Positions 36,808-58,958 of a DNA stretch of 64,000 bases are shown piece after piece. The stretch is taken from assembly GCA_965205165.1 (NCBI GenBank), contig OZ242037.1, positions 2,443,455-2,507,454 of the forward strand, read 5' to 3'. The notes beneath the pieces were generated by a model. The model had not been told where the DNA came from. It worked only from the letters and a program-made list of their open reading frames with translations, and searched no databases. A program made the position numbers and the translations under genes. Positions within the stretch are counted from its first letter, which is position 1, and each line of letters starts with the position of its first letter. This stretch comes from Dehalococcoidia bacterium (lineage in GTDB: Bacteria; Chloroflexota; Dehalococcoidia; Bin125).

Positions 36808-36820
36808 CGCTCGCTCCGCC

Positions 36821-37783: not shown

Positions 37784-37823
37784 GTGCGGTCGCGCGCGCG
37801 CTCGGGGTCGCGGGGGACCCCGA

Positions 37824-39806
37824 TCACGCGTTCTTCCAGACCCGCTCGACGTTGGTCGCGCCCCAGCCCGGGTTCCACGCGTTGTACGTGTCGATCCGGT
37901 TGTACAGGTAGCCGCGCCGCGCATACAAGCGGTACGGGTTCACCGCGAACACGCGCCACATGTTGTTCAGCTCCTTGATCCGGATCTTCTCCAAGATGTC
38001 CGAGCGCTTGTCGACGTCCAGCTCGCGCCGCTGGTCAAGGCACCATTGGTCGATCTCCGGATCGCTGATCCCGTACCAGTTGCTGGAGCTGTCGCTGTGC
38101 ATCTTGCCGTAGGCCAGCCCGTCCGCGTCCATCTCCGCGCCGATCAGCCATGTGAACAGCGCATCGGTGAAGTCGCGCGTCACCACCTTGGCGATCCAGT
38201 TCTCCACCTCGATCTGCTCGTGGTTCGCGGTCACGCCCAGGTTCCGCTTCCACTGGTCCCGCACCAGCTCGTACAGGTTCAGGTACGTGTTCGCCACGTT
38301 GTGCATCATGAACTGGAACTCGAGCGGATTCGCGTCGTTGTAGCCGGCCGCATCCAGCAGCATCCGGCCCTCCTGCGGATCGAACCGCGCGAAATCGCCC
38401 AGCTCCGCCTCCGTCCACGGCCACTCGCGGAAGCCCCAGTCCGATTCATCGTCGCGGAAGAAGGTCCAGTTCTGCCCGTAGCCCGCCGCCGCCAGCCCGT
38501 TGTACACCCCCTCCTTCTGCTCAGCCCGGTTCATCCCCACCGACAGCGCCTGCCGCACCCGCGGATCGCCGAACACGCCCGAGTTGATATCCAGGAAGTT
38601 CACGTACGGCTGCCAACCCGGGGGGGGGGCGGTCACTTGGATCACCGTGTCAGACTGCGCCGACATCGCGCGCTCCACGTCGAACGTGTCCCACATCACC
38701 ATCCCGTCGACGTCGCCCGCCTCCCAAGCCGCCCACTCCGACTCGCGCTGGTTGATGAAGTCCGGCCCGTGCAGCCCGTCCAAGAACGGCAGCCGCATGC
38801 CGGAGACCGGATCGTCCTTCCAGTAGTTCGGGTTCTTCGACGCGATCCACTCCTTGCCCTGCTCGACGAAATCGAGGATGAACGGCCCGGTGCCGGCCGC
38901 GTTCCGCCAGTCGTCCAGCTTCGTGTAGTCGTCGGTGATGATCTCCGGCGAGATCACCGTGTGGAACGGGTTCATCATGTTGTTGAACAGGTAGGCCGAC
39001 GGTTCGCTCAGGTTGAACGTCACCGTGTTCGCCGCGTTGTCGTGCTCGATCGTGGTCACCGCCGTGTAGGACGACTCCTGCACCGTGCTGTAGTCGGGCG
39101 CGAGCGTCGCCCCGTCGCGCAGCGCGTCGTACGCGATCTTCACGTCCTCCGCGGTCATCGCCCGTCCGTTGACCGGTTCCTTGTCCTGCCAGTTGACTCC
39201 GTCGCGCAGCTGGAAGACGACCGTGGTCGGATCCACCGCTTCCCAAGTCGCCGCCAAGTCGCCCTCGTTCTCGTAGTAGTGGGCGTTGGAGAAGTCGTCC
39301 ATCGGGAAGAGGATCAGCTGGCTGTAGAACATCGGCGCGAAGGCGGCCATCAGGCTCGCGTTCGGGCCCAGCACGTTCCAGTTCGCCGCCGGCAGGTGCG
39401 CCATCGTCCAGGTGCCGCCGTACTTCGGCCCGTCGCTCTGCCCCGGCAGATTCTGCAGCTTGCTCCAGTGGTACCGCAGCCGCCACTCCTCCTCCGGTGA
39501 CAGCCCCGCCGCCTCCTGCTCCGCCGTCAGCTCGCCCGGCAGCAGCCCCGTCGACGAGACCGCTTGCTGCGCCTGCCCGCTCTGCTGCTGGGTCGCCTGC
39601 TGCGCGGTCTGATCCGCGGCCTGCTGGACCTGCTGCTCCTGCGCCGCAGCGGTCGTCTGCTGCGCCTGATCGTCGCCGTCGTCGCTGCCGCAGCCCACCA
39701 GCGCCAAGCCGGCGGCCCCGACCCCGGCCCGCGTCGAGGCCGCGAGCACCGCGCGGCGGCTGAGACGCTTGCTCCGCATCCGGGTCCAGTAGTTGCGCTC
39801 GCTCAT
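37824..39806 (-). CDS. ABC transporter substrate-binding lipoprotein, family 5, Tat-type signal
   Basis: MSERNYWTRMRSKRLSRRAVLAAS twin-arginine motif, lipobox LVGCGS, Gln/Ala-rich low-complexity linker, then SBP family-5 body; start at ATG 39806. Confidence 0.84.
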   Translation of the reverse strand: MSERNYWTRMRSKRLSRRAVLAASTRAGVGAAGLALVGCGSDDGDDQAQQTTAAAQEQQVQQAADQTAQQATQQQSGQAQQAVSSTGLLPGELTAEQEAAGLSPEEEWRLRYHWSKLQNLPGQSDGPKYGGTWTMAHLPAANWNVLGPNASLMAAFAPMFYSQLILFPMDDFSNAHYYENEGDLAATWEAVDPTTVVFQLRDGVNWQDKEPVNGRAMTAEDVKIAYDALRDGATLAPDYSTVQESSYTAVTTIEHDNAANTVTFNLSEPSAYLFNNMMNPFHTVISPEIITDDYTKLDDWRNAAGTGPFILDFVEQGKEWIASKNPNYWKDDPVSGMRLPFLDGLHGPDFINQRESEWAAWEAGDVDGMVMWDTFDVERAMSAQSDTVIQVTAPPPGWQPYVNFLDINSGVFGDPRVRQALSVGMNRAEQKEGVYNGLAAAGYGQNWTFFRDDESDWGFREWPWTEAELGDFARFDPQEGRMLLDAAGYNDANPLEFQFMMHNVANTYLNLYELVRDQWKRNLGVTANHEQIEVENWIAKVVTRDFTDALFTWLIGAEMDADGLAYGKMHSDSSSNWYGISDPEIDQWCLDQRRELDVDKRSDILEKIRIKELNNMWRVFAVNPYRLYARRGYLYNRIDTYNAWNPGWGATNVERVWKNA

Positions 39807-39915
39807 CTCGGCCTCCGGTCCCCCGTCAACGACCGCTGCTCGGCCGCTGTTTCGGGTGCGCGTAAAGTAGGGAACTCGGAATCGGATTTCAACTGCCGCG
39901 GAGCGGGGGTCGGAC

Positions 39916-40407
39916 ATGGATGAATCTGCCGAGATCGAGAGCCGCGTGCGCGACGCCTTGGACGCTGCCGGCATTTCCTTCGACACCATCGTCTGTACGC
40001 CCGACCAGGCCGACACCGCGGTCTTCTGCGAGGTCTTCGACATCGCGCCCGAAGACTCTGTCAACACCATCCTCGTCGTCGGCAAGACCGAGCCGCGCGT
40101 CTACTCCGCCTGCCTCGTCCGCGCCGATACCCGCCTCGACGTCAACCGCGCGGTGCGCAAGGAGATGGGCGTCCGCAAGGCCTCATTCGCCGGTCTCGAC
40201 GAAGCCGTCGAAGTCACCGGCATGATGTACGGCGGCGTCACCCCCTTCGGCCTGCCCGGCGAAATCCCGATCCTGATCGACTCGCGCATCGCCGGCGACG
40301 GCGTCGTCTGGCTCGGCGGCGGCAGCCGCTCGCTCAAAGTCGGCGTCAAAGCCGATGATCTCCTCCGCCTGCCCAACTCCCGTTTGGTGGAAGACTTGGC
40401 AAAGTAG
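39916..40407 (+). CDS. ybaK: YbaK/ProX-family aminoacyl-tRNA deacylase
   Basis: 163 aa; YbaK/EbsC-type editing-domain sequence (GMMYGGVTPFGLPGEIPILIDSRI). Confidence 0.78.
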   Translation: MDESAEIESRVRDALDAAGISFDTIVCTPDQADTAVFCEVFDIAPEDSVNTILVVGKTEPRVYSACLVRADTRLDVNRAVRKEMGVRKASFAGLDEAVEVTGMMYGGVTPFGLPGEIPILIDSRIAGDGVVWLGGGSRSLKVGVKADDLLRLPNSRLVEDLAK

Positions 40408-41483: not shown

Positions 41484-43736
41484 ATGACCACCGCAACCGC
41501 AGAAGCAACGCAAGTCGAACTCGCCGTCGACGGACTCGACGCACCCGTCCGAATCGTGCGCGACCACTGGGGCACGCCCCACGCCCGCGCCGAAAGCGCC
41601 CGCGACGCCTTCTTCGCCCAAGGCTTCTGCCTCGGCCTCGACCGCGCCTGGCAGCTCGAACTCTTCCGCCACATGGCCCACGGCCGCGCCGCCTCCCTGC
41701 TCAACGAGAAGCTCGTCCCCCTCGACAAGCTCAACCGAACCCTCGGCTACGGCCGCGACGCCGAACGCGAATGGCAGGCCCAATCCCCCGAAGCGCGGAT
41801 GATCCTCGACGCCTACGCCGCCGGCGTCAACGCCGGCATCGCCGTCGATCCCCCCGCCGAAGAGTTCGCGCTGCTCGAAAACGAGATGGCCCCTTGGACC
41901 CCCGTCGACTCCCTCGCCATCCTCAAAATGGTCTCCGCCAACCAGCATTGGGCGATCAAGCTCGCCAACGGCCGCGTCGCCGAACTGCTCGGCCCCGACG
42001 CGGTGCGCGCCGTCACCCCCGATGTTCCCGAGGACGCCGCCCTGATCGTCCCTTCAGGCGAGCGCTGGAGCGGCGGTCACCACGCTTGGGAAGACGCGCT
42101 CGCCCTCCTCGCCGAACAGCCCGACGTCCGCCGCAACGGGATCGACGGCTCCAACTGCTGGGTCGTCGACGCCGCCCACTCCGCCGCCGGCGCGGCCATC
42201 GTCTGCGGCGACCCCCATCTCCCGCTCAGCGTCCCGCCGCAGTGGTACGTGATGCACATGGACTGCCCCGATTTCAACGTCGCCGGCCCGTGCAGCCCCG
42301 GCTACCCGGGCCCCGTCTACTACGGCCACAACGGCCGCGTCGCCTGGACCATGACCCACGCGCAAGGCGACCGCTGGGACGTCTACCGCGAGCGCATCCG
42401 CCCAGGCGACGCCCCGACCGCCGAATACCTCGGCGAACAAGAGCCCCTCTCGCGCCGCGAAGAACGCATCGACGTCCGCGGCGGCGAGCCGGTTGCCCAC
42501 GTCGTCTGGGAAACCCGCCACGGCCCCGTCGTCGAAGGCGATCCGACCTCCGACGAGCAGGTGATGGCCGCCAAGTTCGCGCTCGCCGAACCCTGCCGCG
42601 ACTTCGACGCGCTCCTGCCCAAGTTCACCGCCTCCGGCATCGGCGATATCCACGCCGCCTTCCAGCGCTACGACTCCATCTCCGGCAACTTCTGCTTCGC
42701 CGACGCCGCCGGCGAAATCGGCTACCAGTACACCGGCCGCACCGTCATCCGCGATTGCGCGCTCACCCCCGTGCCCGGCTGGGACGGCGCGCACGAATGG
42801 AACGGCGAGGTCGCCAAGGACGAATTGCCGCAGCAGTCCAACCCCGCCAACGGCATCCTCTTCACCGCCAACAACCGCACCACTACGCCCGACTACCCGC
42901 ACTACCTCTCCTTCAGCCAGACCCCCTTCCGCGCCAACCGCCTCCGCCAGCTGCTGATCGAGCCCGACCGCGACGACTGGACCACCGGCGACATGCCCGC
43001 CATCCAAGGCGACCGCACCAGCCTCCACGCCCGAGCATTCGCCGCCGCCGTCCGTGCCCGCCGCGTCAGCGACGAAGCCGCCCCCTTCAAGCAGATGCTC
43101 TGCCATTGGGACGGCCGCCTCGAGCCCGACTCGCCCGAAGCCGCCCTCTACGCCGAAACCGTCGAGCAGCTCTCCAAGCGCACCATCCGCCCCTTCTTCG
43201 CCGAAACCCGCCGCCTCGAACCCGGCGCCTCCGAAGAGCGCCGCATCGTCCTTGAACAACTTGCCGCGGACGATCCCCTGACCCTGCCCGCCGGTGCGAC
43301 CTGGGAATCAACCCTCTCCGAGGCCTTGGTTACCGCCGCCGCCCGCCTCGATGAACTCTGCGGCGCGGGCGAATGGCGCTACGACGCCGTCCACTTCAGC
43401 GCTTGGCGCCACAACCTCGGCCGCGACCCCGAACACGCCAAACGCTTCAACCTCCGGAACATCCTCACCGGCGGCGACGATTTCACCGTCAACAACGCCG
43501 GCTACGCCTACGGCAAGCCCGGCGACCACGGCGTCTCCAATCGCTGGATCGCCAGCCTCGCCGACCTCGACAACGCCCGCTTCTGCCTCCCCCCCGGCAA
43601 CTCCGGCCGCCCCGACTCCCCCCACTACAGCGACAACCTCCAGCGTTGGCTGGACATCGAGTACCACCCCCTCCACATCGAGTGGCCGAACATCGAAGCC
43701 AACGCCGAATCCGAACTCCGCCTGGCCCCGCGCTGA
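41484..43736 (+). CDS. penicillin amidase / acylase family (Ntn hydrolase, peptidase S45-like) protein
   Basis: 750 aa; autoproteolytic nucleophile context NGIDGSNCWVVD; no recognisable signal peptide. Confidence 0.83.
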   Translation: MTTATAEATQVELAVDGLDAPVRIVRDHWGTPHARAESARDAFFAQGFCLGLDRAWQLELFRHMAHGRAASLLNEKLVPLDKLNRTLGYGRDAEREWQAQSPEARMILDAYAAGVNAGIAVDPPAEEFALLENEMAPWTPVDSLAILKMVSANQHWAIKLANGRVAELLGPDAVRAVTPDVPEDAALIVPSGERWSGGHHAWEDALALLAEQPDVRRNGIDGSNCWVVDAAHSAAGAAIVCGDPHLPLSVPPQWYVMHMDCPDFNVAGPCSPGYPGPVYYGHNGRVAWTMTHAQGDRWDVYRERIRPGDAPTAEYLGEQEPLSRREERIDVRGGEPVAHVVWETRHGPVVEGDPTSDEQVMAAKFALAEPCRDFDALLPKFTASGIGDIHAAFQRYDSISGNFCFADAAGEIGYQYTGRTVIRDCALTPVPGWDGAHEWNGEVAKDELPQQSNPANGILFTANNRTTTPDYPHYLSFSQTPFRANRLRQLLIEPDRDDWTTGDMPAIQGDRTSLHARAFAAAVRARRVSDEAAPFKQMLCHWDGRLEPDSPEAALYAETVEQLSKRTIRPFFAETRRLEPGASEERRIVLEQLAADDPLTLPAGATWESTLSEALVTAAARLDELCGAGEWRYDAVHFSAWRHNLGRDPEHAKRFNLRNILTGGDDFTVNNAGYAYGKPGDHGVSNRWIASLADLDNARFCLPPGNSGRPDSPHYSDNLQRWLDIEYHPLHIEWPNIEANAESELRLAPR

Positions 43737-43759
43737 GCGCGCTGCGGCAGAGCGGGGCC

Positions 43760-44938
43760 TCAGCCCCCGTTCTGCGCCAGGCCGAGCGTCTGCAGCCAGA
43801 GCCGCGCGGTGTTGAGGTCGACCAGCACCGGTTCGATCGAGATCAGCGTGATCGGCGCTGCTTCGTAGACCGCGGGAGTGAAGCCCAGCGCGGCGCCCTC
43901 CGTGTACATGTAGAGGTGCGTTGCCACGTAGCGCGCTTGCAGCCACCGCTGATCGGAGATCGAGAACGCCACCTTGCCGGCGACGATCTGCGCCGCCGCT
44001 CGGAGCCCGCCGAACGCGCCGATCACGATCTCGTCCCCGCTCAGCCGCGCCGCGTCCGACGGCGCCAGCATCAGCGACTCGTTCAGCGTCAGCACGCCTC
44101 CGACGCCGCCGGCCCCCAGCCGCTCCGCGATCTGCTCCGTCGTCCGCGCCGCATCAGACAAGCCGGCCACGTACAGCCGCTCCATCTCGCCGCCCGCGTA
44201 CTCCGCCTCGAGCGCGTCGCAGCGCTCCTCCAAGCCGATGTTGTCCGGCTCGTGCAGCACGCACAGCACCGTCCCTTCAGCGCCCGCCGCGTTGAACGCC
44301 GCGCCGGCCCGCTGCCCCGCGGCCGTCTCGTCGATCGACACGTGGATCGCCGAACCCAGGCGCTCGGCCGCTTCACGGCCCGAGTTGAACGTGACCACGA
44401 CCACGCCCGCATCGATCGCCTCGCGTACCGCGCCTTCCAGCACGTCGGGGTTCGGCAGCGTCGTCGCGATCCCTGCGACTCCGTCCGCGACGCATTGCCG
44501 GATCTGCTCCGCCTGCCGTTCGTGCTCGATCTCCCCCGCCACCCGCGCATCAAGCCCGTGGTGCCGCGCCGCATCCGCCGCGTCCCGCCCGAACCGGCCC
44601 CAGAACGCCGTGTCCGCCGGCCCGCCGTGATGGATGATGCAGACCGGCCGCAGCGCCCCGCCGACCCCCAGGGGCGAACTGTTGGACCAGCGTCCTGTTG
44701 GCGAATCCGCCGGCAGGATGTAGTTCGCCGGCAGCTCGCGCTCCTGCCAGGCGCCGCCCGCCCCCTGCTCCTGCAACCCGACCGCGACGCTCCCGCTCGC
44801 CAGCCGTTGCGCCGAGATCCGGACCGTGTACTGCTCGTCCCCGCCCGACCGATCCCCCTGCGCCAGCGTCGCGCCGATCACCCCCGCTCCGGCGACCATC
44901 GCCATCAGGGCCAAGACCAGCATCGCGTTCTTCAGCAT
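43760..44938 (-). CDS. periplasmic-binding-protein type I (sugar/amine SBP-like) fold protein with extra N-terminal ~70-aa domain
   Basis: Signal peptide MLKNAMLVLALMAMVAGAGVIGA; N-domain YTVRISAQRLASGSVAVGLQE...PTGRWSNSS; PBP-I body; paralog of next gene. Confidence 0.68.
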   Translation of the reverse strand: MLKNAMLVLALMAMVAGAGVIGATLAQGDRSGGDEQYTVRISAQRLASGSVAVGLQEQGAGGAWQERELPANYILPADSPTGRWSNSSPLGVGGALRPVCIIHHGGPADTAFWGRFGRDAADAARHHGLDARVAGEIEHERQAEQIRQCVADGVAGIATTLPNPDVLEGAVREAIDAGVVVVTFNSGREAAERLGSAIHVSIDETAAGQRAGAAFNAAGAEGTVLCVLHEPDNIGLEERCDALEAEYAGGEMERLYVAGLSDAARTTEQIAERLGAGGVGGVLTLNESLMLAPSDAARLSGDEIVIGAFGGLRAAAQIVAGKVAFSISDQRWLQARYVATHLYMYTEGAALGFTPAVYEAAPITLISIEPVLVDLNTARLWLQTLGLAQNGG

Positions 44939-44975
44939 CGGGCCCCCCCGTCCCATGGTCCTGCCGTCTTGCCGC

Positions 44976-46151
44976 TCAGCTGCCGAACTGCTCGGCGATG
45001 AACCGGGCCAGCTCGTCCAGCAGCTGCTGGCTGTTCTCGCGGTCCAGCACGATCGGCTCGATCTGCACCAGCGTGGTCGGGTTGAGCCCGATCGCCTCGA
45101 CGCTGATCCCCAAGTCGATCCCGCTCAGGTAGTTCTTGAGGCTCATCAGCACGTAGTCGCTCTGGAACCACGGTTGATCGGTCAGCGCGATGAAGACCTT
45201 GCCCGCGACGACCTGCCGGGCCGCTTCCAGCACGCCGACCGCGGCCACCTTGGCATCGCTCTCCGCCGCCGCGACCGCCTCCGTTGACGGGTTCATCAGC
45301 GCGCTGTTGAGCATCAGCAGGCCGCCCACCCCGCCTTCGCGCAGACGCTCCGTCATCTGCTGCGTCGAACGCTCGATGTCGGCCACCCCGGCCACGTTGA
45401 AGCGCTCCACCTCGCCGCCCGTGTACGCCCCCTCCAGCGCGTCGCAGCGCTCGTTCAGGCCCGAATTGTCCGGCTCGTGCAGCACGCACAGCACCGTGCC
45501 CGTCACCCCGGCCTCGCTGAACTCCTCCCCCGCCCGGCGCCCGATCGCCGCTTCGTCCAGCGACACGTGCACCGGCACCCCCAGGCTTTCCGCGTCGCCG
45601 CGCCCGGAGTTGTAGGTCACCACCACCACCCCCGACTCCTGCGCGTAGCCGATCGCCTCGCGCAGCGCATCCGCGTTCGGCACGCTGGTCGCGATCCCCC
45701 GGACCCCCTCTTCCACGCATTCCCGGATCAGCCGCGCCTGCGCCTCCGGATCCGGGTCCCCCTTGATCGTGAGATCGATCCCGATGTTGTCGCTCGAAAC
45801 GGTCGCGTTGAGGGTCAGCGACTCCCAGAACTCATCCGCCTCGTCGCCGTGGTGCACGAGGCAGACGGTGTGCGCCGGCCCCAGCGCCCCGCCGATCGAA
45901 ACCGCCGAACTGTTGAACCAGCGCCCGCTCGGCGCGTCCGCCGGCAGCCTGTTCAGCTCCGGCCGCTGCCGCTCGCCCCACTCCCCGTCCTCCCCCGCCT
46001 CCTGCAGCGCCACCGCGACCGCGCCGCTCTCCAGCTTCTGCACCGAAACGCGGACGTCATGATGTCCGCCGCCCGTCTGCGACGCGATCAGGCCGACTGC
46101 GGCCGCACCGATCGCCGCGCCCAAGAGAATCAGAGCAACGCGCTTCAACAT
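44976..46151 (-). CDS. periplasmic-binding-protein type I fold protein, paralog of 43760..44938
   Basis: Signal peptide MLKRVALILLGAAIGAAAVG; N-domain HDVRVSVQKLESGAVAVALQE...PSGRWFNSS; long colinear identity blocks with the downstream paralog (e.g. GTVLCVLHEPDN, ERCDALE). Confidence 0.68.
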   Translation of the reverse strand: MLKRVALILLGAAIGAAAVGLIASQTGGGHHDVRVSVQKLESGAVAVALQEAGEDGEWGERQRPELNRLPADAPSGRWFNSSAVSIGGALGPAHTVCLVHHGDEADEFWESLTLNATVSSDNIGIDLTIKGDPDPEAQARLIRECVEEGVRGIATSVPNADALREAIGYAQESGVVVVTYNSGRGDAESLGVPVHVSLDEAAIGRRAGEEFSEAGVTGTVLCVLHEPDNSGLNERCDALEGAYTGGEVERFNVAGVADIERSTQQMTERLREGGVGGLLMLNSALMNPSTEAVAAAESDAKVAAVGVLEAARQVVAGKVFIALTDQPWFQSDYVLMSLKNYLSGIDLGISVEAIGLNPTTLVQIEPIVLDRENSQQLLDELARFIAEQFGS

Positions 46152-46230
46152 CCCGGCCTCCTTCGCCCGCCGCGCTCCTCGCGGCGGTTGACGGAAGCGA
46201 GGATATTGCAGCAGCCGTCAAAGCGCCCGC

Positions 46231-47496
46231 TCAGCCTGCCGCGGCGGCGGCCGAAGCCGCCTCGCCCAGAATCCCCAGCCCCTCCGCCAGTTCGCCGTCG
46301 TCGATCGTCAGCGGCGGCATCAGCTTCACCACGTCGCTCTCCGCTCCCGACGTCTCGACCAGCAGCCCCCGCTCGTACGCGCCCGCCGCGATCCGCTCCG
46401 CCATCCCCTCCACCGGCGAATGCAGCCCGATCAGCAGCCCGCGCCCGCGGATCGAGCCGCGCAGCCGCTCCTCGCCCGCGATGATCCCGCCCAGCGCCTC
46501 CTCCACGATCGCCGACTTGCGCGCCACCTCCCGCGACAGCGCGTCGTCCGCCCACCACTCGCGCAGCGCGGCCGCCGCCGTCACGAACGCCGCGTTGTTC
46601 CCGCGGAACGTCCCGTTGTGCTCGCCCGGCGCCCACAAGTCCAAGTCCGGCCGCACCAGCGCCAGCGCCATCGGCTGCCCGATCCCCGAGATCGACTTCG
46701 ACAGGCAGATGATGTCCGGCTCGATCCCCGCGGGCTCGAACGAAAAGAACGTCCCCGTCCGCCCGCAGCCCGCCTGCACGTCGTCCGCGATCAGCAGCAT
46801 GTCGTGCGCCCGGCAGATCGCCTCCAAGCCCCGCAGCCAGCCCGCCGACGCGGCATGCAGCCCGCCCTCGCCCTGCACTGTCTCCACGATCACCGCCGCC
46901 GCCCGGTTCAACCCTCCGCCCGGGCGCAGCATCGACTCCAGCACCGCCAGCGAATCGCCCTCGCCGATCTGCCCCTCGTACGGCACCGTCGCCGCGTGGT
47001 TCAGGGGCACCCCCGCCGAGCGCCGCTTGTTCGGATTCGCGCTCACCGCCAGCGCCCCCAGCGTCATTCCGTGGAACGCGTTCGAAAACGCGATCACCGT
47101 CTCCCGCCCCGTCGCCTTCCGCGCCAGCTTCAGCGCCGCCTCCACCGCGTTCGCCCCCGTCGGCCCCGTGAACTGCAGCTTGTACGACATCCCGCGCGGG
47201 CGCAGGATCAACTCTTCGAACCGCAGCAGGAACTCCCGCTTCGCCCGCGTCGACATGTCGAGGGCGTGCAGCACCCCGTCATCTTCCAGGTAGGAAATCA
47301 GCGCCCGCTTCAGCGGCGGCGGATTGTGCCCGTAGTTCAGCGCCCCCGCGCCGCTGAAGAAGTCCAGGTACTCGCGCCCGTCCTCATCCTCCAGCCTCGC
47401 CCCCCGCGCCCGCGACCAGATCGCCGGCCAAGCCCTGCAATAGGAGCGGACATTCGATTCCAGCTCCGCGAACACGTCCACGGGCATCGTCACCAT
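46231..47496 (-). CDS. class III aminotransferase, diaminobutyrate--2-oxoglutarate transaminase-like (EctB/Dat family)
   Basis: N-terminus FAELESNVRSYCRAWPAIWSRARGARLEDEDGREYLDFFSGAGALNYGHN matches the EctB/Dat family signature; PLP-fold III core. Confidence 0.84.
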   Translation of the reverse strand: MVTMPVDVFAELESNVRSYCRAWPAIWSRARGARLEDEDGREYLDFFSGAGALNYGHNPPPLKRALISYLEDDGVLHALDMSTRAKREFLLRFEELILRPRGMSYKLQFTGPTGANAVEAALKLARKATGRETVIAFSNAFHGMTLGALAVSANPNKRRSAGVPLNHAATVPYEGQIGEGDSLAVLESMLRPGGGLNRAAAVIVETVQGEGGLHAASAGWLRGLEAICRAHDMLLIADDVQAGCGRTGTFFSFEPAGIEPDIICLSKSISGIGQPMALALVRPDLDLWAPGEHNGTFRGNNAAFVTAAAALREWWADDALSREVARKSAIVEEALGGIIAGEERLRGSIRGRGLLIGLHSPVEGMAERIAAGAYERGLLVETSGAESDVVKLMPPLTIDDGELAEGLGILGEAASAAAAAG

Positions 47497-47599
47497 GCCG
47501 ACCTCCGCGCCGAGCCGCCGCCCTCACTATGCACCATATCCCCGCCCCGCCGCAGCCCGGCGATGATCACCCGGTGAATTCCCCCGCCGCTGCCCGCCG

Positions 47600-49489
47600 C
47601 TAGTGCCCGCAATGCTCCGGCATCGGCACGTCCAGCGCCGGATTGCGGTCGAAGAACCCCCACGGCTTCATCTTGAAGCCCGCCCGCTGCACCGGCATCA
47701 CCGGCCAATCCTCCGGCCGCGCGACATGGTGCATCCCCACCGTGTACCAGAGCACCACGTCCGCATCCCGCAGGTTCCGCCCCGCCGCCGTCCACCTCGG
47801 CATCCCCTCGCCCGCCTCGCTCTGCGCCGGATAATCGCCGCCGGGATACCGCTCCGACGGATTATGCGCCGTCACCCACAGCTGCTTCCGCGCGAACGCC
47901 GCCCGCCGCGCCACCGACGACTCTCCGTCCGCCATCATCGCCACCGTCGCGCCCGGAATCAGCGCGTACGCCGGCGCTTCCCCCAGCCCGTTCCGCGCCC
48001 CGTCGTTGGCGATCCGCCAATGCCGCGCCGACGCCGCGTTGACCTCCCGCCCGCTTTCCGATTCGTCCGCGATCTCCCTCGCCCGCGACGTGAAAGCGTT
48101 CCCATGCGGATTCTCCGGCCCCCGCGGCAGCGGAACCGCATCCACCTCGTAGACCGTGTTCGCATCGCCGTCCACCGCCATGTCCAGCCGGAACGTGAGG
48201 AAGTGCTGGTGGATCGCGCCCGCCAGCCCCGGCCCGATCTTGTGCCGCGTCACCTCCGGCTCGTCCTCCGCGACCGCCATCGTTTGCACGATCCCCGTCG
48301 CCTTCACCTCGTGCTCCCAGCTCCCGTCCTGGTAGAAGTACCAGTAGAACCCGTAGTCGTAGTTGTCCACCGTCGCAACCGACGAAACGACCAGCCGCCG
48401 CGACCGCCGAACCCACGATCGCGGCTCGCCCGTCTCCTCGTCCCGGTACGTGTGCTTCCAGAGGATCCCGTGATCCTCCTCGTGGATGCAGATCGCGTTC
48501 TTGATCGTCTCCGCCCCGCCCCGCTCGTCCGTGATCACCCCGTCCATGTACGCGATCTCGCCCAAGCAGTCGCAGCCCAACTCCAGCGAGTTCGTCATCC
48601 GCCCCAAACCGCACTCGCCCGAATCGAACGCGTTCTTGAAGTACTGCCCGACGCTCGGATCCCCGTACGGCACCACCATCTCCGCCACCGACGCCCGCTC
48701 GCAGATGCGCCGCAAACGCCCCCCATCCTCGTACCCGATCTCGTGCAGCACCAGCCCCTCGCGCGGGTGCAGCGACACCCGCATCTGCCACTTCTGCCAG
48801 CGCAGCAGATGCCCCTCCAGCGTGAACGACGGCCCCTCCGCCTGCACGATCTCCAGCGGCTTCAAGTCCGTCCGCGCCGGCCCGCCGCAGTCGTGGTCGA
48901 ACCGCAGCGCCTCCCGCGGCGGCGGCGGATTCGGATGATCCTCCACCTCCAGCACCAGCCCGCCGATCAGATCGACGATCGCGACCAGCCCCTCCACCGG
49001 CCGCCCGTAGTAGCCGTCGTCGTCCGCCCCGTCCCGCAGGTACGCCAGCCCCTTCAAAATCCGGTGCTCCCTCTCCCACCTCGAGCCGAAGTTGCCGACC
49101 GGCCAGAGGTGCAGGAACGCCGAATCGATCTGCGCCTCGTCGAACCCCCGCGCCGCCATCGCCGCCCGCCAGCCCGCATCGGCCCGGATCCCCGCCTCCG
49201 CCCGCGCGTACTCCTCCCGCAGCGCGTACGGCTGCACCCCCGGCAGCCCGATCGCCGAAACCGCTTCCCCCGCATCGAGATCGACCACCACCTCCGCGGT
49301 ATCCCCCGAGATCGCATCGAAGCAGACCGCCTCCGCCAGCCGCGCCGGCGCTTCCGCCCCCTTGGGCGGATCCAGCGCAGCGATCAGCGGGAACCGCAGC
49401 GACAATCGTCTGCCCAAGCGCACCCCCGCGATCGCCGCCGTCCGCTCGATCTCCGCGGCCGACAGCGGGTCCAGCGGATGCGCCGTCAT
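47600..49489 (-). CDS. copper-containing primary-amine oxidase (TPQ cofactor)
   Basis: TPQ consensus TVDNYDYGFYWYF, His copper ligands, RASVAEMVVPYGDPS; colinear with Arthrobacter-type amine oxidases; start taken at MTAHPLDPL (49489), no signal peptide. Confidence 0.9.
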   Translation of the reverse strand: MTAHPLDPLSAAEIERTAAIAGVRLGRRLSLRFPLIAALDPPKGAEAPARLAEAVCFDAISGDTAEVVVDLDAGEAVSAIGLPGVQPYALREEYARAEAGIRADAGWRAAMAARGFDEAQIDSAFLHLWPVGNFGSRWEREHRILKGLAYLRDGADDDGYYGRPVEGLVAIVDLIGGLVLEVEDHPNPPPPREALRFDHDCGGPARTDLKPLEIVQAEGPSFTLEGHLLRWQKWQMRVSLHPREGLVLHEIGYEDGGRLRRICERASVAEMVVPYGDPSVGQYFKNAFDSGECGLGRMTNSLELGCDCLGEIAYMDGVITDERGGAETIKNAICIHEEDHGILWKHTYRDEETGEPRSWVRRSRRLVVSSVATVDNYDYGFYWYFYQDGSWEHEVKATGIVQTMAVAEDEPEVTRHKIGPGLAGAIHQHFLTFRLDMAVDGDANTVYEVDAVPLPRGPENPHGNAFTSRAREIADESESGREVNAASARHWRIANDGARNGLGEAPAYALIPGATVAMMADGESSVARRAAFARKQLWVTAHNPSERYPGGDYPAQSEAGEGMPRWTAAGRNLRDADVVLWYTVGMHHVARPEDWPVMPVQRAGFKMKPWGFFDRNPALDVPMPEHCGH

Positions 49490-49505
49490 CTCCAGCCCGG
49501 CCCGC

Positions 49506-51527
49506 TCAGCCGCGCCCGTTGCTCGACGCGCCGCCATGCCCATCCTCCTCTTCGTGCTCGTGCGCACAGTGCTCCGGCATCGGCACGTCCAGCCCCGGGT
49601 TGCGGTCGAAGAAGCCCCACGGCTTCATCGTGAACCCCGCCCGGTGCACCGGCGCCACCGGCCAATCCTCCGGCGTCGCCACGTGGTTCATCCCGACCGT
49701 GTACCACAGCACCACGTCCGCGTCCGTCAGCGGACGCCCCTGCGCCACCCACTTCGGCATCCCCTCGCCGCCATCGCTCTGATTCGGGTAGTCCCCCGCC
49801 GGATACCGCTCCGACGGGTCGTGCGCGGTCACCCAGAGCAGCCGGCGCGCGAACCGCGCCCGCTGCCCCACCGCCGAATCCTCCGCCGCCATCATGTCCA
49901 CCGTCTCCCCCGGCATCAGCGCGTACGCCGGCGGATTGCCCAGCGGATTGGCCGTCCCGTCGTTCGAGATCCGCCAGTGCCGCGCCGACGGCGAATGCAC
50001 CGACCTCCCGCTCTCCGCCTCGCTCGCGATCGCGACCGCCCGCGACGTGAAGGCGTTCCCGCGCGGATTCTCCGGCCCCCGCGGCAGCGGAACCGCGTCC
50101 ACCTCGTAGACCGTGTTCCGGCCGCCGTCCACCGCCATGTCCAGCCGGAAGCTGAAGAAGTGCTGGTGGATCGGCCCCGCCAGGTTCGGCGCCACCTTGT
50201 GCCGCGTGATCTGCGGATCATCGTCCGCGATCGCCGCCGTCTGGATGATCCCCGTCGCCTTCACCTCGTGTTCCCAGCTCCCGTCCTGGTAGAAGTACCA
50301 GTAGAAGCCGTAGTCGTAGTTGCCCACCGTCGCGATCGCCGACACCACCAGCCGCCGCGACCGCCGCACCCAGGACTCCGGCGCGCCCGTCTCCGGGTTC
50401 CGGTAGGTGTGCTTCCAGAGGATCCCGAAATCCTCCTCGTGGATGCAGATCGCGTTCTTGATCGTCCGCGCCCCTCCCCGCTCGTCCGTCACGACCCCGT
50501 CCATGTACGCGATCTCCCCCAGGCAGTCGCAGCCCAGCTCCAGCGAGTTGGTCAGCCGCCCCAGCCCCCCGACCTCGCCCGAATCGAACGCGTTCTTGAA
50601 GTACTGCGACGCGCCCGGATCCCCGTACGGAACCACCATCTCCGCCAGCGACGCCCGATGGCAGATCGACCGCAGCCGCGCCTCCGGCTTCCTCCCGTTC
50701 GGCGAATGCCCCGGCCCCGCCAGCGGGTCCGTCCCCGCATCGTCCCAGTACCCGATCTCGTGCAGCACCAGCCCCTCGCGCGGGTGCAGCGACACCCGCA
50801 TCTGCCACTTCTGCCAGCGCAGCAGGTGACCTTCCAGCGTGAACGACGGCCCCTCCGCCTGCACGATCTCCAGCGGCTTCACGTCCCCGCGCGGCGCGCC
50901 GCCGTGATCGTGGTCGAACCGCAGCGCCGTCTTCGGCGTCGGCCCGCCCGGCTCGTCGATGATCTCCAGCACCCGGTTCTCGACCAGGTCGACGATCGCC
51001 ACCAGCCCCTCGACAGGCCGCCCATAACCGTTGTCTTCCGGCTCGTCCCGCAGGTACGCGATCCCCTTCAGGATGCGGTGCCCCGTCTCCCACTCGCTGC
51101 CGAAGTTGCCGCCCGGCCACGGATCGATCTGGCACATCTCGAGCTCCGCCTCCGAAACGCCCCGCGCCCGCATCGCCGCACGCCAGCCCTCGTCCTCCCG
51201 GATCGCCGCCTCCGCCCGCCCGAACTCCTCCATCAGCGGAAACGCCTGCACGTCCGGCCGCGGCGTCGCCGACTCCACCACCCCCGCGTCCAAGTCGGCG
51301 ATCACTTCCGTCGCCAGACCCGTCGCCGTGTCCAGCACGATCAGCTCCGCCCGCCGCCGTGCGTCATCCGACCCCTTGGCCGGCTCCAGCCCCGCCACCA
51401 GCGGGAACCGCAGCGTCTCCGCGCCCCCCAGGTGCGCCGCTGCCAGCTCCGCCGCCCGCCCGATCTCCTCCCCCGAAAGTGGATCCAGCGGATGCACCCC
51501 CACCCGCTCCAGAGTCGCAGTCGCCAT
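49506..51527 (-). CDS. copper-containing primary-amine oxidase (TPQ cofactor), tandem paralog
   Basis: TVGNYDYGFYWYF TPQ motif, RASLAEMVVPYGDPG; GGAGG RBS upstream of ATG 51527; no signal peptide. Confidence 0.9.
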   Translation of the reverse strand: MATATLERVGVHPLDPLSGEEIGRAAELAAAHLGGAETLRFPLVAGLEPAKGSDDARRRAELIVLDTATGLATEVIADLDAGVVESATPRPDVQAFPLMEEFGRAEAAIREDEGWRAAMRARGVSEAELEMCQIDPWPGGNFGSEWETGHRILKGIAYLRDEPEDNGYGRPVEGLVAIVDLVENRVLEIIDEPGGPTPKTALRFDHDHGGAPRGDVKPLEIVQAEGPSFTLEGHLLRWQKWQMRVSLHPREGLVLHEIGYWDDAGTDPLAGPGHSPNGRKPEARLRSICHRASLAEMVVPYGDPGASQYFKNAFDSGEVGGLGRLTNSLELGCDCLGEIAYMDGVVTDERGGARTIKNAICIHEEDFGILWKHTYRNPETGAPESWVRRSRRLVVSAIATVGNYDYGFYWYFYQDGSWEHEVKATGIIQTAAIADDDPQITRHKVAPNLAGPIHQHFFSFRLDMAVDGGRNTVYEVDAVPLPRGPENPRGNAFTSRAVAIASEAESGRSVHSPSARHWRISNDGTANPLGNPPAYALMPGETVDMMAAEDSAVGQRARFARRLLWVTAHDPSERYPAGDYPNQSDGGEGMPKWVAQGRPLTDADVVLWYTVGMNHVATPEDWPVAPVHRAGFTMKPWGFFDRNPGLDVPMPEHCAHEHEEEDGHGGASSNGRG

Positions 51528-51615
51528 AACGCACCTCCTCGGGCCCGATCTCCCGCGAGCATAGCGATCCCTGCACCCCTAATCCCGCCCATACCAGCTG
51601 CGGACATCTCTCCGC

Positions 51616-51900
51616 CCCCGAACTGCCAAACAACTGCAACAGCTGCAAACCCGCCCATGGCAGTCCGAATCAGCGTCAAACGACGGCGTTCCCCCCGTTT
51701 CCGCCCTGTACTGCCAACCTGCTGTCAACGCTGCAAACCCTTCCGCGACAGCCCCGATCCGCGCCAGCGCCGGACCCCCGCCCCGTACTGCCAAACAACT
51801 GCAACAGCTGTAAAACCACCCTTGACACCTCGGCTTCCCAAGGAATTCCGCGCCCGAACCGCGCACCGGGCCCCTACTGCAACGCCAACTGTCAAACTCC
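51616..51900. repeat. four degenerate ~30-bp direct repeats (TACTGCCAA-n-CTGCAAC-n-CTGCAAACC type) in the promoter region of the amine-oxidase operon
   Basis: Copies at ~51622-51651, 51709-51740, 51786-51817 (near-identical to copy 1) and 51875-51900; each made of three CTGCAA-like heptamers spaced ~10 bp. Confidence 0.5.
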
Positions 51901-51917
51901 TGCCTCTCCCCCGCCCG

Positions 51918-53327
51918 TCAATTGCCGAGCGTCCAGTACGCCCGCGGATCATTGCGGCTGCCGCCCACCCGCCGCGCCAGCTCCGCCTCGGCCAGCCGGG
52001 TCAGGTGCCGCAGCGCCGTCGGCCGCGAGACCCCCTCCAGCGCCGCCGCCTCCGCCGTCCCCAGCCGCCCCGCCCGCTTCAGGTGCTCGTACACCCGCTG
52101 CGTCGCCGCCGGCAGCTCGGCCAGCCGCCTCAGCTCGGGCGCCGGCGCGCGCAGCGTGATCTTGACCCCGCCCGCCGTCTGCCGGATCTCCGGCGGCGGG
52201 CGCCGGTTCGACTCCATCACCTCCGCCATCCGCCGCAGCCCCTCGCCCACGTCCTGCCCGTACCGCAGCTGCCCCATCACCCGCGCGATCCGCGGGTTCC
52301 GCGCCGCCCGCCGCACGTTCGCCAAGTCCCGCGGCGGCGGCCCGCTCGCGAACCGGCCCGGACTCGACACCTCGATCCGGTCGTCGAAGATCTGCACCCG
52401 GACGTGATCCCCGAAATCGCTGTACGCCCGGTGCAGCACCGCGTTCACCAGCGCTTCCATCCACGCCGCGTCCGGCACGATCGGAAACCAGTCGAAGCGC
52501 CCGTCCGCCCCAAGCTGCCGCCACTTCGGCAGCTGCTCCCGGATGAAGCCCGCCGCCTCGTCGATCTGCCGCGGCAGCGGCCCTTGGCAGTAGCGGTCCG
52601 CCCGCAAATTCTGATCCTCCCCCGTCCGCGCCTCCTTCCCCTCGTAGCGCAGCGTCCGCACCAGCGCCTGCGGAAACGCCCGCTGCGGATTCACCCCGAA
52701 CAGCAGCGCTCCCGCCGTCAGCAGCTGCCCGTCGCCGCCCACCAGCGGCATCGCGTTCAGCACCCGCCCGGGATCCGGATGCCCTATCTGCTCCGCGTAC
52801 GACGCCAGCGCCCCCTCGTCCAGCTCGATCTCCGATCCCGCCGGCACCGGCCGCAGCTCGAACGCGATCTCCCCCCGCTCGTACTCCAGCAGCAGCCGCT
52901 CGTCGAATGTCAGCTTGTGGTTCGAGTCGCCCACCCGCGCGAACACCTCGTCCTTGCGGTTCGCATGCACCCGGTCCCCCGGCGGCACCTCGATCACGAA
53001 CACGTGATCGGCATCGCCCGCCCGGTTGACGCAGTCCAGCAGCGAAGCCTCGTAGGGCACCGGCGGAACCGTGAACTGCACCCCCGCCCGCCGCCAGTCG
53101 TTCTGGACCCGCTCCTTCGAATCGACCCCCTCGCACTCGCCCCCGCTCAGCCCGATCACCAGCACCCCGCCGTCCGCGTTGGCCAGCGCCACCAGCGGAT
53201 TCGCCAACTCCCGCGCCTTGATCCGCGCCGACTTGCGGTCGTACCACTGCCCCTCCGGCTCTCCCAGCAGCACCCGCGTCACCTCATCGGGCGGCATCAA
53301 CCTCAGGCGTTCGACCGGCGGCAGCAT
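51918..53327 (-). CDS. Schlafen-like AlbA_2 (divergent AAA) / HATPase_c_4 / C-terminal wHTH protein (putative DNA-binding regulator, RecG-C-like)
   Basis: N-terminal AlbA_2-like block (PLVALANADGGVLVIGL), central HATPase_c_4 block (NAVLHRAYSDFGDHVRVQIFDDRIEVSSPG...RNPRIARVM), C-terminal HTH (VYEHLKRAGRLGTAEAAALEGVSRPTALRHLTRL); start at ATG 53327 (track ORF begins at TTG 53351). Confidence 0.78.
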   Translation of the reverse strand: MLPPVERLRLMPPDEVTRVLLGEPEGQWYDRKSARIKARELANPLVALANADGGVLVIGLSGGECEGVDSKERVQNDWRRAGVQFTVPPVPYEASLLDCVNRAGDADHVFVIEVPPGDRVHANRKDEVFARVGDSNHKLTFDERLLLEYERGEIAFELRPVPAGSEIELDEGALASYAEQIGHPDPGRVLNAMPLVGGDGQLLTAGALLFGVNPQRAFPQALVRTLRYEGKEARTGEDQNLRADRYCQGPLPRQIDEAAGFIREQLPKWRQLGADGRFDWFPIVPDAAWMEALVNAVLHRAYSDFGDHVRVQIFDDRIEVSSPGRFASGPPPRDLANVRRAARNPRIARVMGQLRYGQDVGEGLRRMAEVMESNRRPPPEIRQTAGGVKITLRAPAPELRRLAELPAATQRVYEHLKRAGRLGTAEAAALEGVSRPTALRHLTRLAEAELARRVGGSRNDPRAYWTLGN

Positions 53328-53342
53328 CGTTCCAGTGTAATC

Positions 53343-53443
53343 TACTGCCAAATTGTTGCACTACACCTCACGCAGTCTCCGCCTCTGAACCGGCACCGAT
53401 GAAGCGCAACTGCAACAAGCTGCCAAATTGTTGCACCTCAGCT
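53343..53443. repeat. two further copies of the CTGCCAA..TTGCAC repeat immediately upstream of the AlbA_2/HATPase_c_4 gene
   Basis: CTGCCAAATTGTTGCAC at 53346-53362 (16-34 bp upstream of the ATG) and again at 53420-53436, the second preceded by AACTGCAACAAG. Confidence 0.45.
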
Positions 53444-56211: not shown

Positions 56212-56871
56212 ATGGTCATGGCAGCCGAAACCCCGTTGGCGCGGATCGACGCGGCCGCCCAATCCGCCCGCGCCCGCGGCAAAGCCCGAATCCGCCCGGG
56301 CTGCCCGGTCACCGTCGACCTCCTCGAGCGACTCTCGATCCGCCACGACGACCTCTGGTTCGAAGGCGGCTCAAGGGAGGAGATCATCATCAGCGCTGCA
56401 TCGCGCGGCCGCGTGCCCCAAGTGCTGCTGGGCATCGCCGGCCAGCTGTTCAACTGGTTCGTCCAACGCGGCATCACTTGGGGCCGAACGACCGACGGCG
56501 CGTTCCACCCGCCCGGCTGGGTGCCCAAAATCCCGGACATCAGCTGGGTCAGCCCCGAACGCGAAGCGCTCGCCAAGGTGGACGGCAAACTCCCCGCCTT
56601 CTGGCCCATCGCCCCCGATTTCGTCGTCGAAATCGTCTCCGAAACCGACTCCCTCGCCGACCAGCTCGAAAAGATGGCCGGCTGGATCGAGCACGGTTCC
56701 CTGCTCGGCCTAGTCGTCGACCCCGCCGCCCGAACCGTCTACATCCACCGCCCCGGCGAACCCGCTGATCGCCGCGTCCGCCCCGCCCAGATCGACTGCG
56801 ACCCGGAAGTCCCCGGCTTCAAGATCGACTTCGCCCTGATCTGGCAGTTCCTCGATCAATCCGGCGACTGA
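56212..56871 (+). CDS. Uma2-family (DUF820, PD-(D/E)xK fold) putative endonuclease
   Basis: Conserved ...PDFVVEIVSETD...(D/E) motif typical of Uma2; 219 aa. Confidence 0.78.
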   Translation: MVMAAETPLARIDAAAQSARARGKARIRPGCPVTVDLLERLSIRHDDLWFEGGSREEIIISAASRGRVPQVLLGIAGQLFNWFVQRGITWGRTTDGAFHPPGWVPKIPDISWVSPEREALAKVDGKLPAFWPIAPDFVVEIVSETDSLADQLEKMAGWIEHGSLLGLVVDPAARTVYIHRPGEPADRRVRPAQIDCDPEVPGFKIDFALIWQFLDQSGD

Positions 56872-56919
56872 CTTTCCCCGGGCTCCCCTGCCGGCCGACG
56901 TTCACCAAGCCCAAGTAAG

Positions 56920-57594
56920 ATGTCTCTCGGAGGATCGCCGATGGTGACCGCAACGGCACAGCCGCTCGATCAAGTCGAGGCAGCCGCGCAATCAGCCCTC
57001 GCGCACGGCAAGGCGCGCGTGTACCTCGGCTGCCCGATCACCGCCGACCTCCTCGAACTGCTGTCGGCGCGGCACGACGGCCTCGCCTTCGAAGGCGGGC
57101 GGGAAGGCGAGGTCATCATCAGCGGGGCAACGCCCGGTCTCATCCCCGAAGTCGGATCGCTCCTCAACGCCCAAGTCGGCAACTGCCTGCTCGCTCAAGG
57201 CGAGCGCGTCTCCCGCGCTCAAGACGGCGCATTCGATCCGCCCGGTTGGACGCCCAAAATCCCCGACCTCAGCTGGGTCAGCGCCCAACGCCGCGCCCTC
57301 GCCCTGCGCGACGGCAAGCTTCCCCCCTATTGGCCCGTCGCACCCGACTTCGTCGTCGAAATCGTCTCCGAAACTGACTCCCTCGCCGACCAGCTCGAAA
57401 AGATGGCTGGTTGGATCGAGCACGGCTCCCTGCTCGGCTTGGTCGTCGACCCACGCAGCGAAACCGTCTACGTCCACCGCCCCGGCAGCCCTGCCGAAGA
57501 ACACGCCAGCCCCGACGAGATTGACTGCCGCCCCGAGGTCCCGAACCTGATCCTCGACTTCGCCTCGATCTGGCGCTACCTGGCCGACGCCTGA
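56920..57594 (+). CDS. Uma2-family putative endonuclease, tandem paralog
   Basis: Same architecture; shares a >90% identical ~110-nt block (56621-56730 vs 57343-57452) with the upstream copy. Confidence 0.78.
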   Translation: MSLGGSPMVTATAQPLDQVEAAAQSALAHGKARVYLGCPITADLLELLSARHDGLAFEGGREGEVIISGATPGLIPEVGSLLNAQVGNCLLAQGERVSRAQDGAFDPPGWTPKIPDLSWVSAQRRALALRDGKLPPYWPVAPDFVVEIVSETDSLADQLEKMAGWIEHGSLLGLVVDPRSETVYVHRPGSPAEEHASPDEIDCRPEVPNLILDFASIWRYLADA

Positions 57595-58848: not shown

Positions 58849-58958
58849 GACAGCCCTCCGTTCCTTCCGCAGTCTAGGGACTGCTCAGCCGCTCCTGGGC
58901 CAAGCGCTGGACTCCACGCCGGCCGGCGCTTACCTTGCCGCAGCGGAAGGGGGCGGCA

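Follow-up and report, generated by a model that had tools for sequence, protein, structure and literature searches.

Why should an EctB-type aminotransferase lie directly downstream of two copper amine oxidases, with the genes for two paralogous binding proteins behind it? The question is raised by a gene cluster at positions 43760-51527, on the minus strand, of a 64,000-nt stretch of DNA (about 70% G+C; the window in what follows) from a Dehalococcoidia bacterium (GenBank assembly GCA_965205165.1, contig OZ242037.1). An initial annotation had read this cluster as a dedicated pathway for the sensing, binding, and oxidation of a diamine or polyamine-like substrate. That reading is supported in part: a unit of oxidase, aminotransferase, binding protein, and amidase is conserved in related genomes, but the binding of polyamines by the binding proteins finds no support. 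We tentatively propose that the cluster is a lineage-specific catabolic one, which scavenges nitrogen and carbon from an imported primary amine, and we give this reading a probability of roughly 0.45. Its firmest unit is formed by the oxidase or oxidases and the aminotransferase. If the reading is true, the cluster would represent a new route of amine use in abundant uncultured Dehalococcoidia, in which an oxygen-dependent oxidase is paired with a glutamate-forming transaminase. The combination of an EctB-type aminotransferase, tandem cytoplasmic copper amine oxidases, and transporter-less CUT2-like binding proteins is lineage specific and undescribed; every part comes from a known family. Our literature search returned nothing relevant on this gene combination or on amine oxidases in SAR202 or sponge Chloroflexi, in agreement with the initial annotation, in which the combination was not recognized as a described operon.

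The oxidase-aminotransferase unit

The first two genes, cuAO2 (49506-51527, minus strand, 673 amino acids [aa]; the first-copy paralogue) and cuAO1 (47600-49489, minus strand, 629 aa; the second-copy paralogue), both encode copper amine oxidases. Both products match the Pfam family Cu_amine_oxid (E values of 1e-152 and 1e-145), with 509 and 486 bits for the PF01179 catalytic domain (cut-off, 27), and both exceed the cut-off of 651 bits of the NCBIfam primary-amine oxidase model PRK11504 (804 and 791 bits). The closest solved relative is the phenylethylamine oxidase of Arthrobacter globiformis (AGAO; 480 to 512 bits), whose N2 and N3 domains are also matched by both proteins. The catalytic set is complete in both, with the motifs NYDY (the tyrosine that gives topaquinone [TPQ]), FDSGE (the aspartate base), HQH, and MHHV/MNHV (the third histidine) aligning to Y382, D298, H431, H433, and H592 of AGAO. 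When the sequences were read for export signals, no N-terminal hydrophobic segment was seen in either oxidase, in the aminotransferase, or in the nearby amidase, and therefore all four are taken to be cytoplasmic. The tandem oxidases with a TPQ motif and without an export signal, as originally described, were thus confirmed. We take the ATG that encodes the N terminus MTAHPLDPLS as the start of cuAO1; a longer mechanical open reading frame (ORF) from the GTG at 49567 would overlap cuAO2.

The cluster oxidases have the N2, N3, and catalytic domains, the catalytic residues, and the cytoplasmic form in common with AGAO, and like AGAO and amine utilization loci such as Escherichia coli tynA-feaB they presumably serve to make a primary amine available as a nutrient. 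However, they are only about 45 to 50% identical to AGAO. In place of its aromatic channel residues Y296, Y302, and Y307 they have Ala, Cys/Val, and Met/Leu (Ala, Cys, and Met in cuAO1), so that the substrate preference of AGAO cannot be transferred to them. Further differences are the two ancient tandem paralogues and the lack of an aldehyde dehydrogenase partner. In the alignment cuAO1 and cuAO2 are 71% identical, and cuAO2 carries an insertion of about 20 aa after EIGYWDD. A tree of the paralogues indicates that the two lineages stem from an old duplication and that both were retained, with the cuAO1 lineage forming one clade that is conserved across the lineage.

The third gene (46231-47496, minus strand, 421 aa) encodes a class III aminotransferase, here called AT. 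Besides the Aminotran_3 match, AT scores 604 bits with the ectoine_ectB model TIGR02407 (equivalog cut-off, 552) and 619 bits with PRK09264 (cut-off, 438). Orthologues of AT are labeled diaminobutyrate--2-oxoglutarate transaminase by both NCBI and JGI, and the closest solved structure is the EctB structure 6RL5 (472 bits). The hallmarks of EctB are the lysine that binds pyridoxal 5'-phosphate (PLP), a methionine in place of the carboxylate-binding arginine of gamma-aminobutyrate transaminase (GABA-TA), and an Asn/Thr loop (PMC6915088). AT keeps all of these, in the motifs CLSKS, FHGMT, and NGTFRG, respectively, and thus resembles the EctB of ectABC loci both in passing the equivalog model and in its active site. 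A second, separate EctB paralogue (a 416-aa class) was considered and rejected, as it proved to be the AT gene annotated from another start.

To place this unit in context, the proteins of the window were compared by tblastn with fetched loci, giving 24 other oxidase-bearing loci, each from a different species-level Chloroflexota/Dehalococcoidia genome. An oxidase is followed directly by the EctB-type aminotransferase gene on the same strand in all 24, with two oxidase copies in 17 loci and one in the other 7; the tblastn gap between oxidase and AT is 105 to 300 bp, apart from one locus with 702 bp. Genes encoding HNH_2, Uma2, Mrr_N, or Schlafen-like proteins are inserted among thiolase, binding protein, and oxidase genes in various genomes, but never between oxidase and AT. 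According to the initial annotation, the cluster hypothesis would fail if orthologues were never co-localized in other genomes; this synteny search found them together in the 24 loci.

The neighbors of AT in the window are an oxidase and SBP-A, and each of the 24 related loci likewise has an oxidase on one side of it and a binding protein or amidase on the other. No Ectoine_synth or acetyltransferase domain, as expected for ectC or ectA, was present in the Pfam-annotated maps, although whole genomes were not searched. The score of TIGR02407, the hallmark motifs, and the gene maps together bear out the earlier description of AT as an EctB-type enzyme without adjoining ectA or ectC. In this respect AT differs from the EctB of ectABC, from DoeD of ectoine degradation, and from Dat of the Dat/Ddc 1,3-diaminopropane pathway, since no ectA, ectC, doe, or ddc gene adjoins it and its gene follows those of copper amine oxidases throughout the clade.

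AT might nevertheless be an ordinary EctB for ectoine, or provide 2,4-diaminobutyrate (DABA) for some other product; ectA and ectC would then lie elsewhere, and the adjacency to the oxidases would be incidental. The score above the curated EctB cut-off and the names given to its orthologues by NCBI and JGI would fit such a role. The ect genes, however, are normally arranged as one ectABC operon, and the constant adjacency to an oxidase, together with gene maps in which no flanking gene has the size of ectA or ectC, makes this explanation very improbable. An EctB annotation alone therefore does not imply ectoine synthesis, which bears on the inference of osmoadaptation from metagenomes.

The five genes of the cluster are all on the minus strand, as first described, and the gaps between them, from cuAO2 to SBP-B, are 16, 103, 79, and 19 bp. 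These gaps contain no predicted intrinsic terminator; the predictions of sigma-70 promoters and intrinsic terminators were not above chance level. For the cluster and its leader, Rfam gave no credible match to a riboswitch or to any other kind of RNA element. We infer from the spacing that the five genes may be co-transcribed.

The binding proteins

The last two genes encode the substrate-binding proteins (SBPs) SBP-A (44976-46151, minus strand, 391 aa) and SBP-B (43760-44956, minus strand, 398 aa), which are 48% identical; the true start of SBP-B may be the ATG at 44938. Their only Pfam match is Peripla_BP_4 (PF13407; E values of 1e-26 and 1e-23 and scores of 94 and 82 bits, respectively). 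A profile of the family matches PDB entry 4RU1 (Acidothermus ACEI_1806, CUT2 family) with an E value of 1e-36, and the AlphaFold model of SBP-A (pLDDT of 82.7 overall and above 90 in the core) superposes on 4RU1 in Foldseek with a TM-score of 0.91. The initial annotation was therefore right that these are two paralogous proteins of the PBP-I fold. 4RU1 is a component of a verified myo-inositol transporter (PMC10747050). The best NCBIfam match of the binding proteins, a weak one, is to a rhizopine (inosamine) binding protein, and the class II models to which PotD and PotF belong (SBP_bac_1 and SBP_bac_8) gave no match, with only Peripla_BP_4 and sugar-type models matching. Because of the profile and fold match to 4RU1 and the match to the rhizopine-binding model, SBP-A and SBP-B are predicted to be binders of the sugar/cyclitol type (CUT2) and not polyamine binders of the PotD/PotF type. 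The proposal that they bind a diamine or polyamine has no support at the family level.

At the N terminus of the SBPs there is a hydrophobic helix (residues 2 to 24, corresponding in the AlphaFold model of SBP-A to a transmembrane [TM] or signal helix at 46080-46148, minus strand). There is no lipobox cysteine and no clear AxA site, and the helix fits either a cleaved signal or an uncleaved anchor. No ABC permease or ATPase is encoded in the cluster, as the initial annotation had remarked, and the Pfam maps show no CUT2 permease or ATPase in its surroundings. With the known CUT2 binding proteins (4RU1, ribose-binding protein, and MocB) the cluster SBPs thus share the type I fold and the pocket and scaffold motifs D-x-F-W, N-x-G, LCVL...RC, and D-Q, but they differ in having no CUT2 permease or ATPase nearby, a hydrophobic N-terminal helix instead of a lipobox, and an extra N-terminal repeat module.

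The SBP family is narrow, with 38 clusters among 5.8 billion proteins in a word-indexed search, and its genomic matches all come from Dehalococcoidia/Chloroflexota metagenome-assembled genomes (MAGs), often with several paralogues per genome. Among 71 neighbors of about 30 SBP paralogues not linked to the cluster, we counted 6 histidine kinases, 5 CoA-transferases, 4 DUF169 proteins, 3 response regulators, and 2 ABC ATPases; nucleoside transporters were also found, and the CUT2 permease family BPD_transp_2 was not among the top families. The low number of ABC genes indicates that this SBP family is as a rule not encoded with a transporter. Like the XylFII-LytS sensor co-receptors (PDB 5XSJ), the cluster SBPs are probably membrane-associated Peripla_BP-type proteins without a transporter of their own, and some of their paralogues adjoin histidine kinases and response regulators. 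However, no kinase gene lies beside the cluster-linked SBPs, and their similarity to XylFII is marginal (E value of 2e-3).

Across 84 members of the family, unlinked paralogues included, four cysteines (C97, C145, C222, and C236 in SBP-A numbering), H101, H195, H225, E226, N181-S-G, R235, and F108-W109 are invariant or nearly so. H195, H225, E226, and the C97/C145 pair are missing from 4RU1. Judging from these alignments, the histidine/glutamate set may be a metal site or a site for a special ligand, and the additional cysteine pair may form an extra disulfide. A by-product of this work is thus an expanded sugar-type SBP family that is mostly without adjoining transporter genes and has unusual invariant His and Glu residues.

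In the related loci, at least one binding protein gene lies 0.2 to 5.4 kb from the oxidase in 23 of 24 cases, L057 being the locus without one. The penicillin-amidase-family gene is nearby in every locus, and in 23 it is immediately downstream and convergent with AT or the last SBP gene; the exception is L005, where it lies apart from the oxidase/AT unit. Three gene orders can be told apart. The first is that of the window (cuAO-cuAO-AT-SBP-SBP), the second is SBP(-SBP)-cuAO-cuAO-AT with a further SBP gene beyond the amidase, and in the third the oxidase/AT unit is inverted. In a neighbor-joining tree the SBPs of the first two arrangements form sister clades, apart from about 35 unlinked paralogues, and the cluster-linked SBPs have H100, D106, and D325 as additional invariant residues.

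These observations bear on the question of whether the SBPs belong to the pathway at all. It is possible that only the oxidase or oxidases and AT are a functional unit, and that the SBPs and the amidase are neighbors by descent, the SBPs being general sugar/cyclitol receptors or sensors. This would account for the expansion of the family, for the unlinked members beside unrelated genes with ABC ATPases as only 2 of 71 neighbors, and for a myo-inositol binder as the nearest structure. It would also account for the variable gene order, with HNH, Uma2, or unidentified ORFs between SBP and oxidase genes in several genomes, for the SBP orthologue of L004 that lies away from any oxidase, and for L057. 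On the other hand, the linked SBPs are monophyletic and, although the genes were rearranged at least three times, are still close to the oxidase in 23 of 24 loci, they carry clade-specific invariant pocket residues, and in the window their genes are on the AT strand with gaps of only 79 and 19 bp. We consider a unit limited to oxidase and AT unlikely, though far from negligible, and retain the SBPs in the proposed cluster for the use of a primary amine.

The proposed pathway

In the amine-scavenging pathway that we propose, the core operon would encode a cytoplasmic TPQ oxidase, or two of them, and directly behind it an EctB-type omega-transaminase. The reaction of the oxidases would be R-CH2-NH2 + O2 + H2O -> R-CHO + NH3 + H2O2, and AT would perform the same interconversion of amine and aldehyde without oxygen, passing the nitrogen to glutamate. 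The target of AT may be a second amino group, or else a four-carbon, amino-acid-like intermediate of the diaminobutyrate or aspartate-semialdehyde (ASA) type. SBP-A and SBP-B would be extracytoplasmic receptors, held at the membrane by their N-terminal helix and a surface module of about 55 aa, and their probable task would be to bind either the substrate or a similar polyhydroxylated compound that resembles a cyclitol or sugar; the transporter or sensor that they serve would have its genes at another place.

Convergent with SBP-B lies the gene for a cytoplasmic acylase of the penicillin amidase (N-terminal nucleophile [Ntn]) family (41484-43736, plus strand, 750 aa; Pfam E value of 1e-177). 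Its nearest solved structures are glutaryl-7-ACA acylase and D-succinylase (about 230 bits), and it may deacylate an N-acyl precursor and so set the amine free. Only 23 bp (43737-43759) lie between the stop codon of SBP-B and that of the acylase gene, and the GC-rich inverted repeat GGCCCCGC ... GCGGGGCC spans this junction. It could be a bidirectional terminator without a T-run.

The acylase also has a place in a narrower scheme, the dedicated catabolism of DABA. Both the oxidases (with O2) and AT (with 2-oxoglutarate) would then convert DABA to ASA, and the acylase would free DABA from N-acyl-DABA, for which products of ectoine degradation, peptides that contain DAB, and cell walls are possible sources. 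Such a scheme would suit an AT that is an EctB equivalog with the EctB active-site hallmarks and an acylase that resembles glutaryl and succinyl amidases. Copper amine oxidases act on R-CH2-NH2 groups, and the gamma-amine of DABA would be such a group. We know of no copper amine oxidase that uses DABA, however, the gene maps show no doeA/doeB-type genes nearby, and the SBPs are not of the amino acid or ectoine type. We therefore regard DABA catabolism as quite improbable.

A further scheme is an amine/aldehyde shuttle. In it, AT would aminate an aldehyde such as ASA from glutamate and the oxidase would reoxidize the product, the net result being an O2-dependent deamination of glutamate to 2-oxoglutarate, NH3, and H2O2. 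The two reactions would be stoichiometrically complementary and their genes are invariably paired. There is no precedent for such a shuttle, however, cytoplasmic H2O2 would be costly without obvious benefit, and the SBPs and amidase would be left unexplained, and we think it is extremely improbable.

The case for a catabolic cluster acting on an imported primary amine is made by the tight spacing without a terminator in the gaps, the intact oxidase residues, and the EctB score of AT. It is strengthened by the adjacency of oxidase and AT in 24 of 24 loci despite insertions elsewhere, by the retention of two ancient oxidase lineages, by the SBP clade with H100, D106, and D325, which in 23 of 24 loci is close to the oxidase although at least three gene orders occur, and by the amidase in 24 of 24. 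Several points weigh against it. The cluster contains no aldehyde dehydrogenase, catalase, or dedicated permease, its binding proteins are of the sugar/cyclitol rather than the polyamine type, and paralogues of these proteins are scattered beside unrelated genes. Moreover, a block of about 27 kb is syntenic in the clade, which begins with a second class III aminotransferase and a thiolase, includes ApbA, and ends with an Opp-type transporter, so that the conservation may in part be a matter of inheritance. Outside the clade, the combination was found in none of 80 metagenomic copper amine oxidase loci (43 to 53% identity, 710 kb), in which we looked for an EctB-like AT, such an SBP, or such an amidase nearby, and in neither of two plasmid loci (Rubrobacter and Rhizobium). 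The idea that the pairing of a copper amine oxidase with an EctB-like AT recurs across phyla was therefore rejected; none of these 82 other loci has the pairing that is constant in this clade.

The uncultured Dehalococcoidia that carry the cluster are probably sponge associated, judging from the names of related MAGs and from a joint listing in the literature, where SB066x bins appear together with sponge Entoporibacteria (PMC7883664). As the clade appears to live in sponges, the pathway, if real, would point to a nitrogen source that is exchanged within that community. A bolder conjecture would be that an EctB-type AT was recruited as the obligate partner of tandem cytoplasmic copper amine oxidases for the use of an amino-cyclitol, a diamine, or a DABA-like compound that the host or the community supplies. 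It would be served by a new class of transporter-less, membrane-anchored CUT2-like receptors with a family-specific His/His/His/Glu cluster (a possible metal site) and an undescribed surface repeat domain of about 55 aa that is shared with eukaryote-like proteins (LRR, ankyrin, and RCC1) and proteases of Chloroflexota and Acidimicrobiia, two lineages known here largely from MAGs of seemingly sponge origin. Taken as a whole, this scenario is unlikely.

The N-terminal module of the binding proteins

Each SBP carries an extra module behind the hydrophobic helix. The initial annotation had given this domain a length of about 70 aa; the module is real in both proteins, but its length is about 55 aa. 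In SBP-A it covers residues ~31 to 86 (45894-46061, minus strand), as defined by profile search and AlphaFold, and in SBP-B residues ~44 to 98 (44663-44827, minus strand), as defined by an hmmsearch of the six-frame translation and the module alignment. The consensus is EVRIxARRLxDGRxEFALQQRxxDGxWGERxLPxxRFFPAxAxVGRWLxSSPLT. In a search of 1.84 billion proteins the module profile matched 1386 cluster representatives, and for 926 of these the E value was 1e-10 or better (other examples are P0038 and P0159-P0308), and no Pfam or NCBIfam model covers it. It typically occurs in two to five tandem copies near the N terminus, behind a hydrophobic segment. Its fusion partners (n = 88) include RCC1-like propellers (12), trypsin-like proteases (12), and LRR proteins (8), and further PD40, SLH, ankyrin, fn3, and Big domains and a cell wall amidase, a set characteristic of secreted or surface proteins. 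AlphaFold, with an alignment of 77 sequences, gave a confident small beta structure (pLDDT of 91.6), to which Foldseek found nothing significantly similar in the PDB. We read the module as a generic extracytoplasmic stalk or anchoring domain. Since more than 1300 protein clusters contain this unannotated repeat domain, it merits a family model.

Flanking genes and repeats

About 4 kb from the cluster there are genes for a binding protein and two permeases of the Opp/Dpp type (35857-40085, minus strand), a transporter that has its own binding protein. No ATPase genes adjoin this set in the window, and the same arrangement is found in L001, L002, L023, and L057.

On the other side, the region upstream of cuAO2 (51528-51917, 390 bp) holds an array of direct repeats (51616-51827) with three to four copies of 35 to 47 nt that contain TTGCAG-like 9-mers. 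The copies are at 51616-51662, 51704-51750, and 51781-51827, with a weaker one near 51870-51905, and their spacing is 77 to 89 bp. Beyond them, between the thiolase gene and the cluster, a gene on the minus strand (51918-53351) encodes a protein with Schlafen-AlbA_2, HATPase_c_4, and winged helix-turn-helix (HTH) domains. Apart from the window, only its closest relative, L001, has this gene, and L001 is also the only other locus with related repeat motifs, including perfect palindromes (4150-4560). Because the repeats are confined to the two loci with the Schlafen-like insertion, we rejected them as an operator of the whole operon. Possibly they are the operator array of the Schlafen-like gene or the remnant of an inserted element.

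The junctions of the cluster are hotspots of nuclease/defense-type or mobile genes that vary between genomes, such as the Schlafen-AlbA_2 ATPase-HTH gene, two tandem Uma2 genes, HNH_2, and Mrr_N (51918-53351 and 56212-57594 in the window, 957-2892 in L002, and 951-1502 and 4986-5702 in L069). Next to the second class III aminotransferase gene lies an ORF of 386 aa (58935-60095, plus strand) with 50% G+C in the window of about 70%, an Asn/Tyr-rich product with a signal-peptide-like N terminus and no Pfam or NCBIfam match. None of the related loci contains a homologue, and for this reason we rejected the ORF as a member of the conserved block; it has the look of foreign DNA that was inserted recently. 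Finally, the GC skew is uniformly and very strongly negative in every 2-kb bin of positions 1-64000 (about -0.1 to -0.28; cumulative, -6.5), regardless of gene orientation, which suggests an unusually strong compositional bias of the replication strands.

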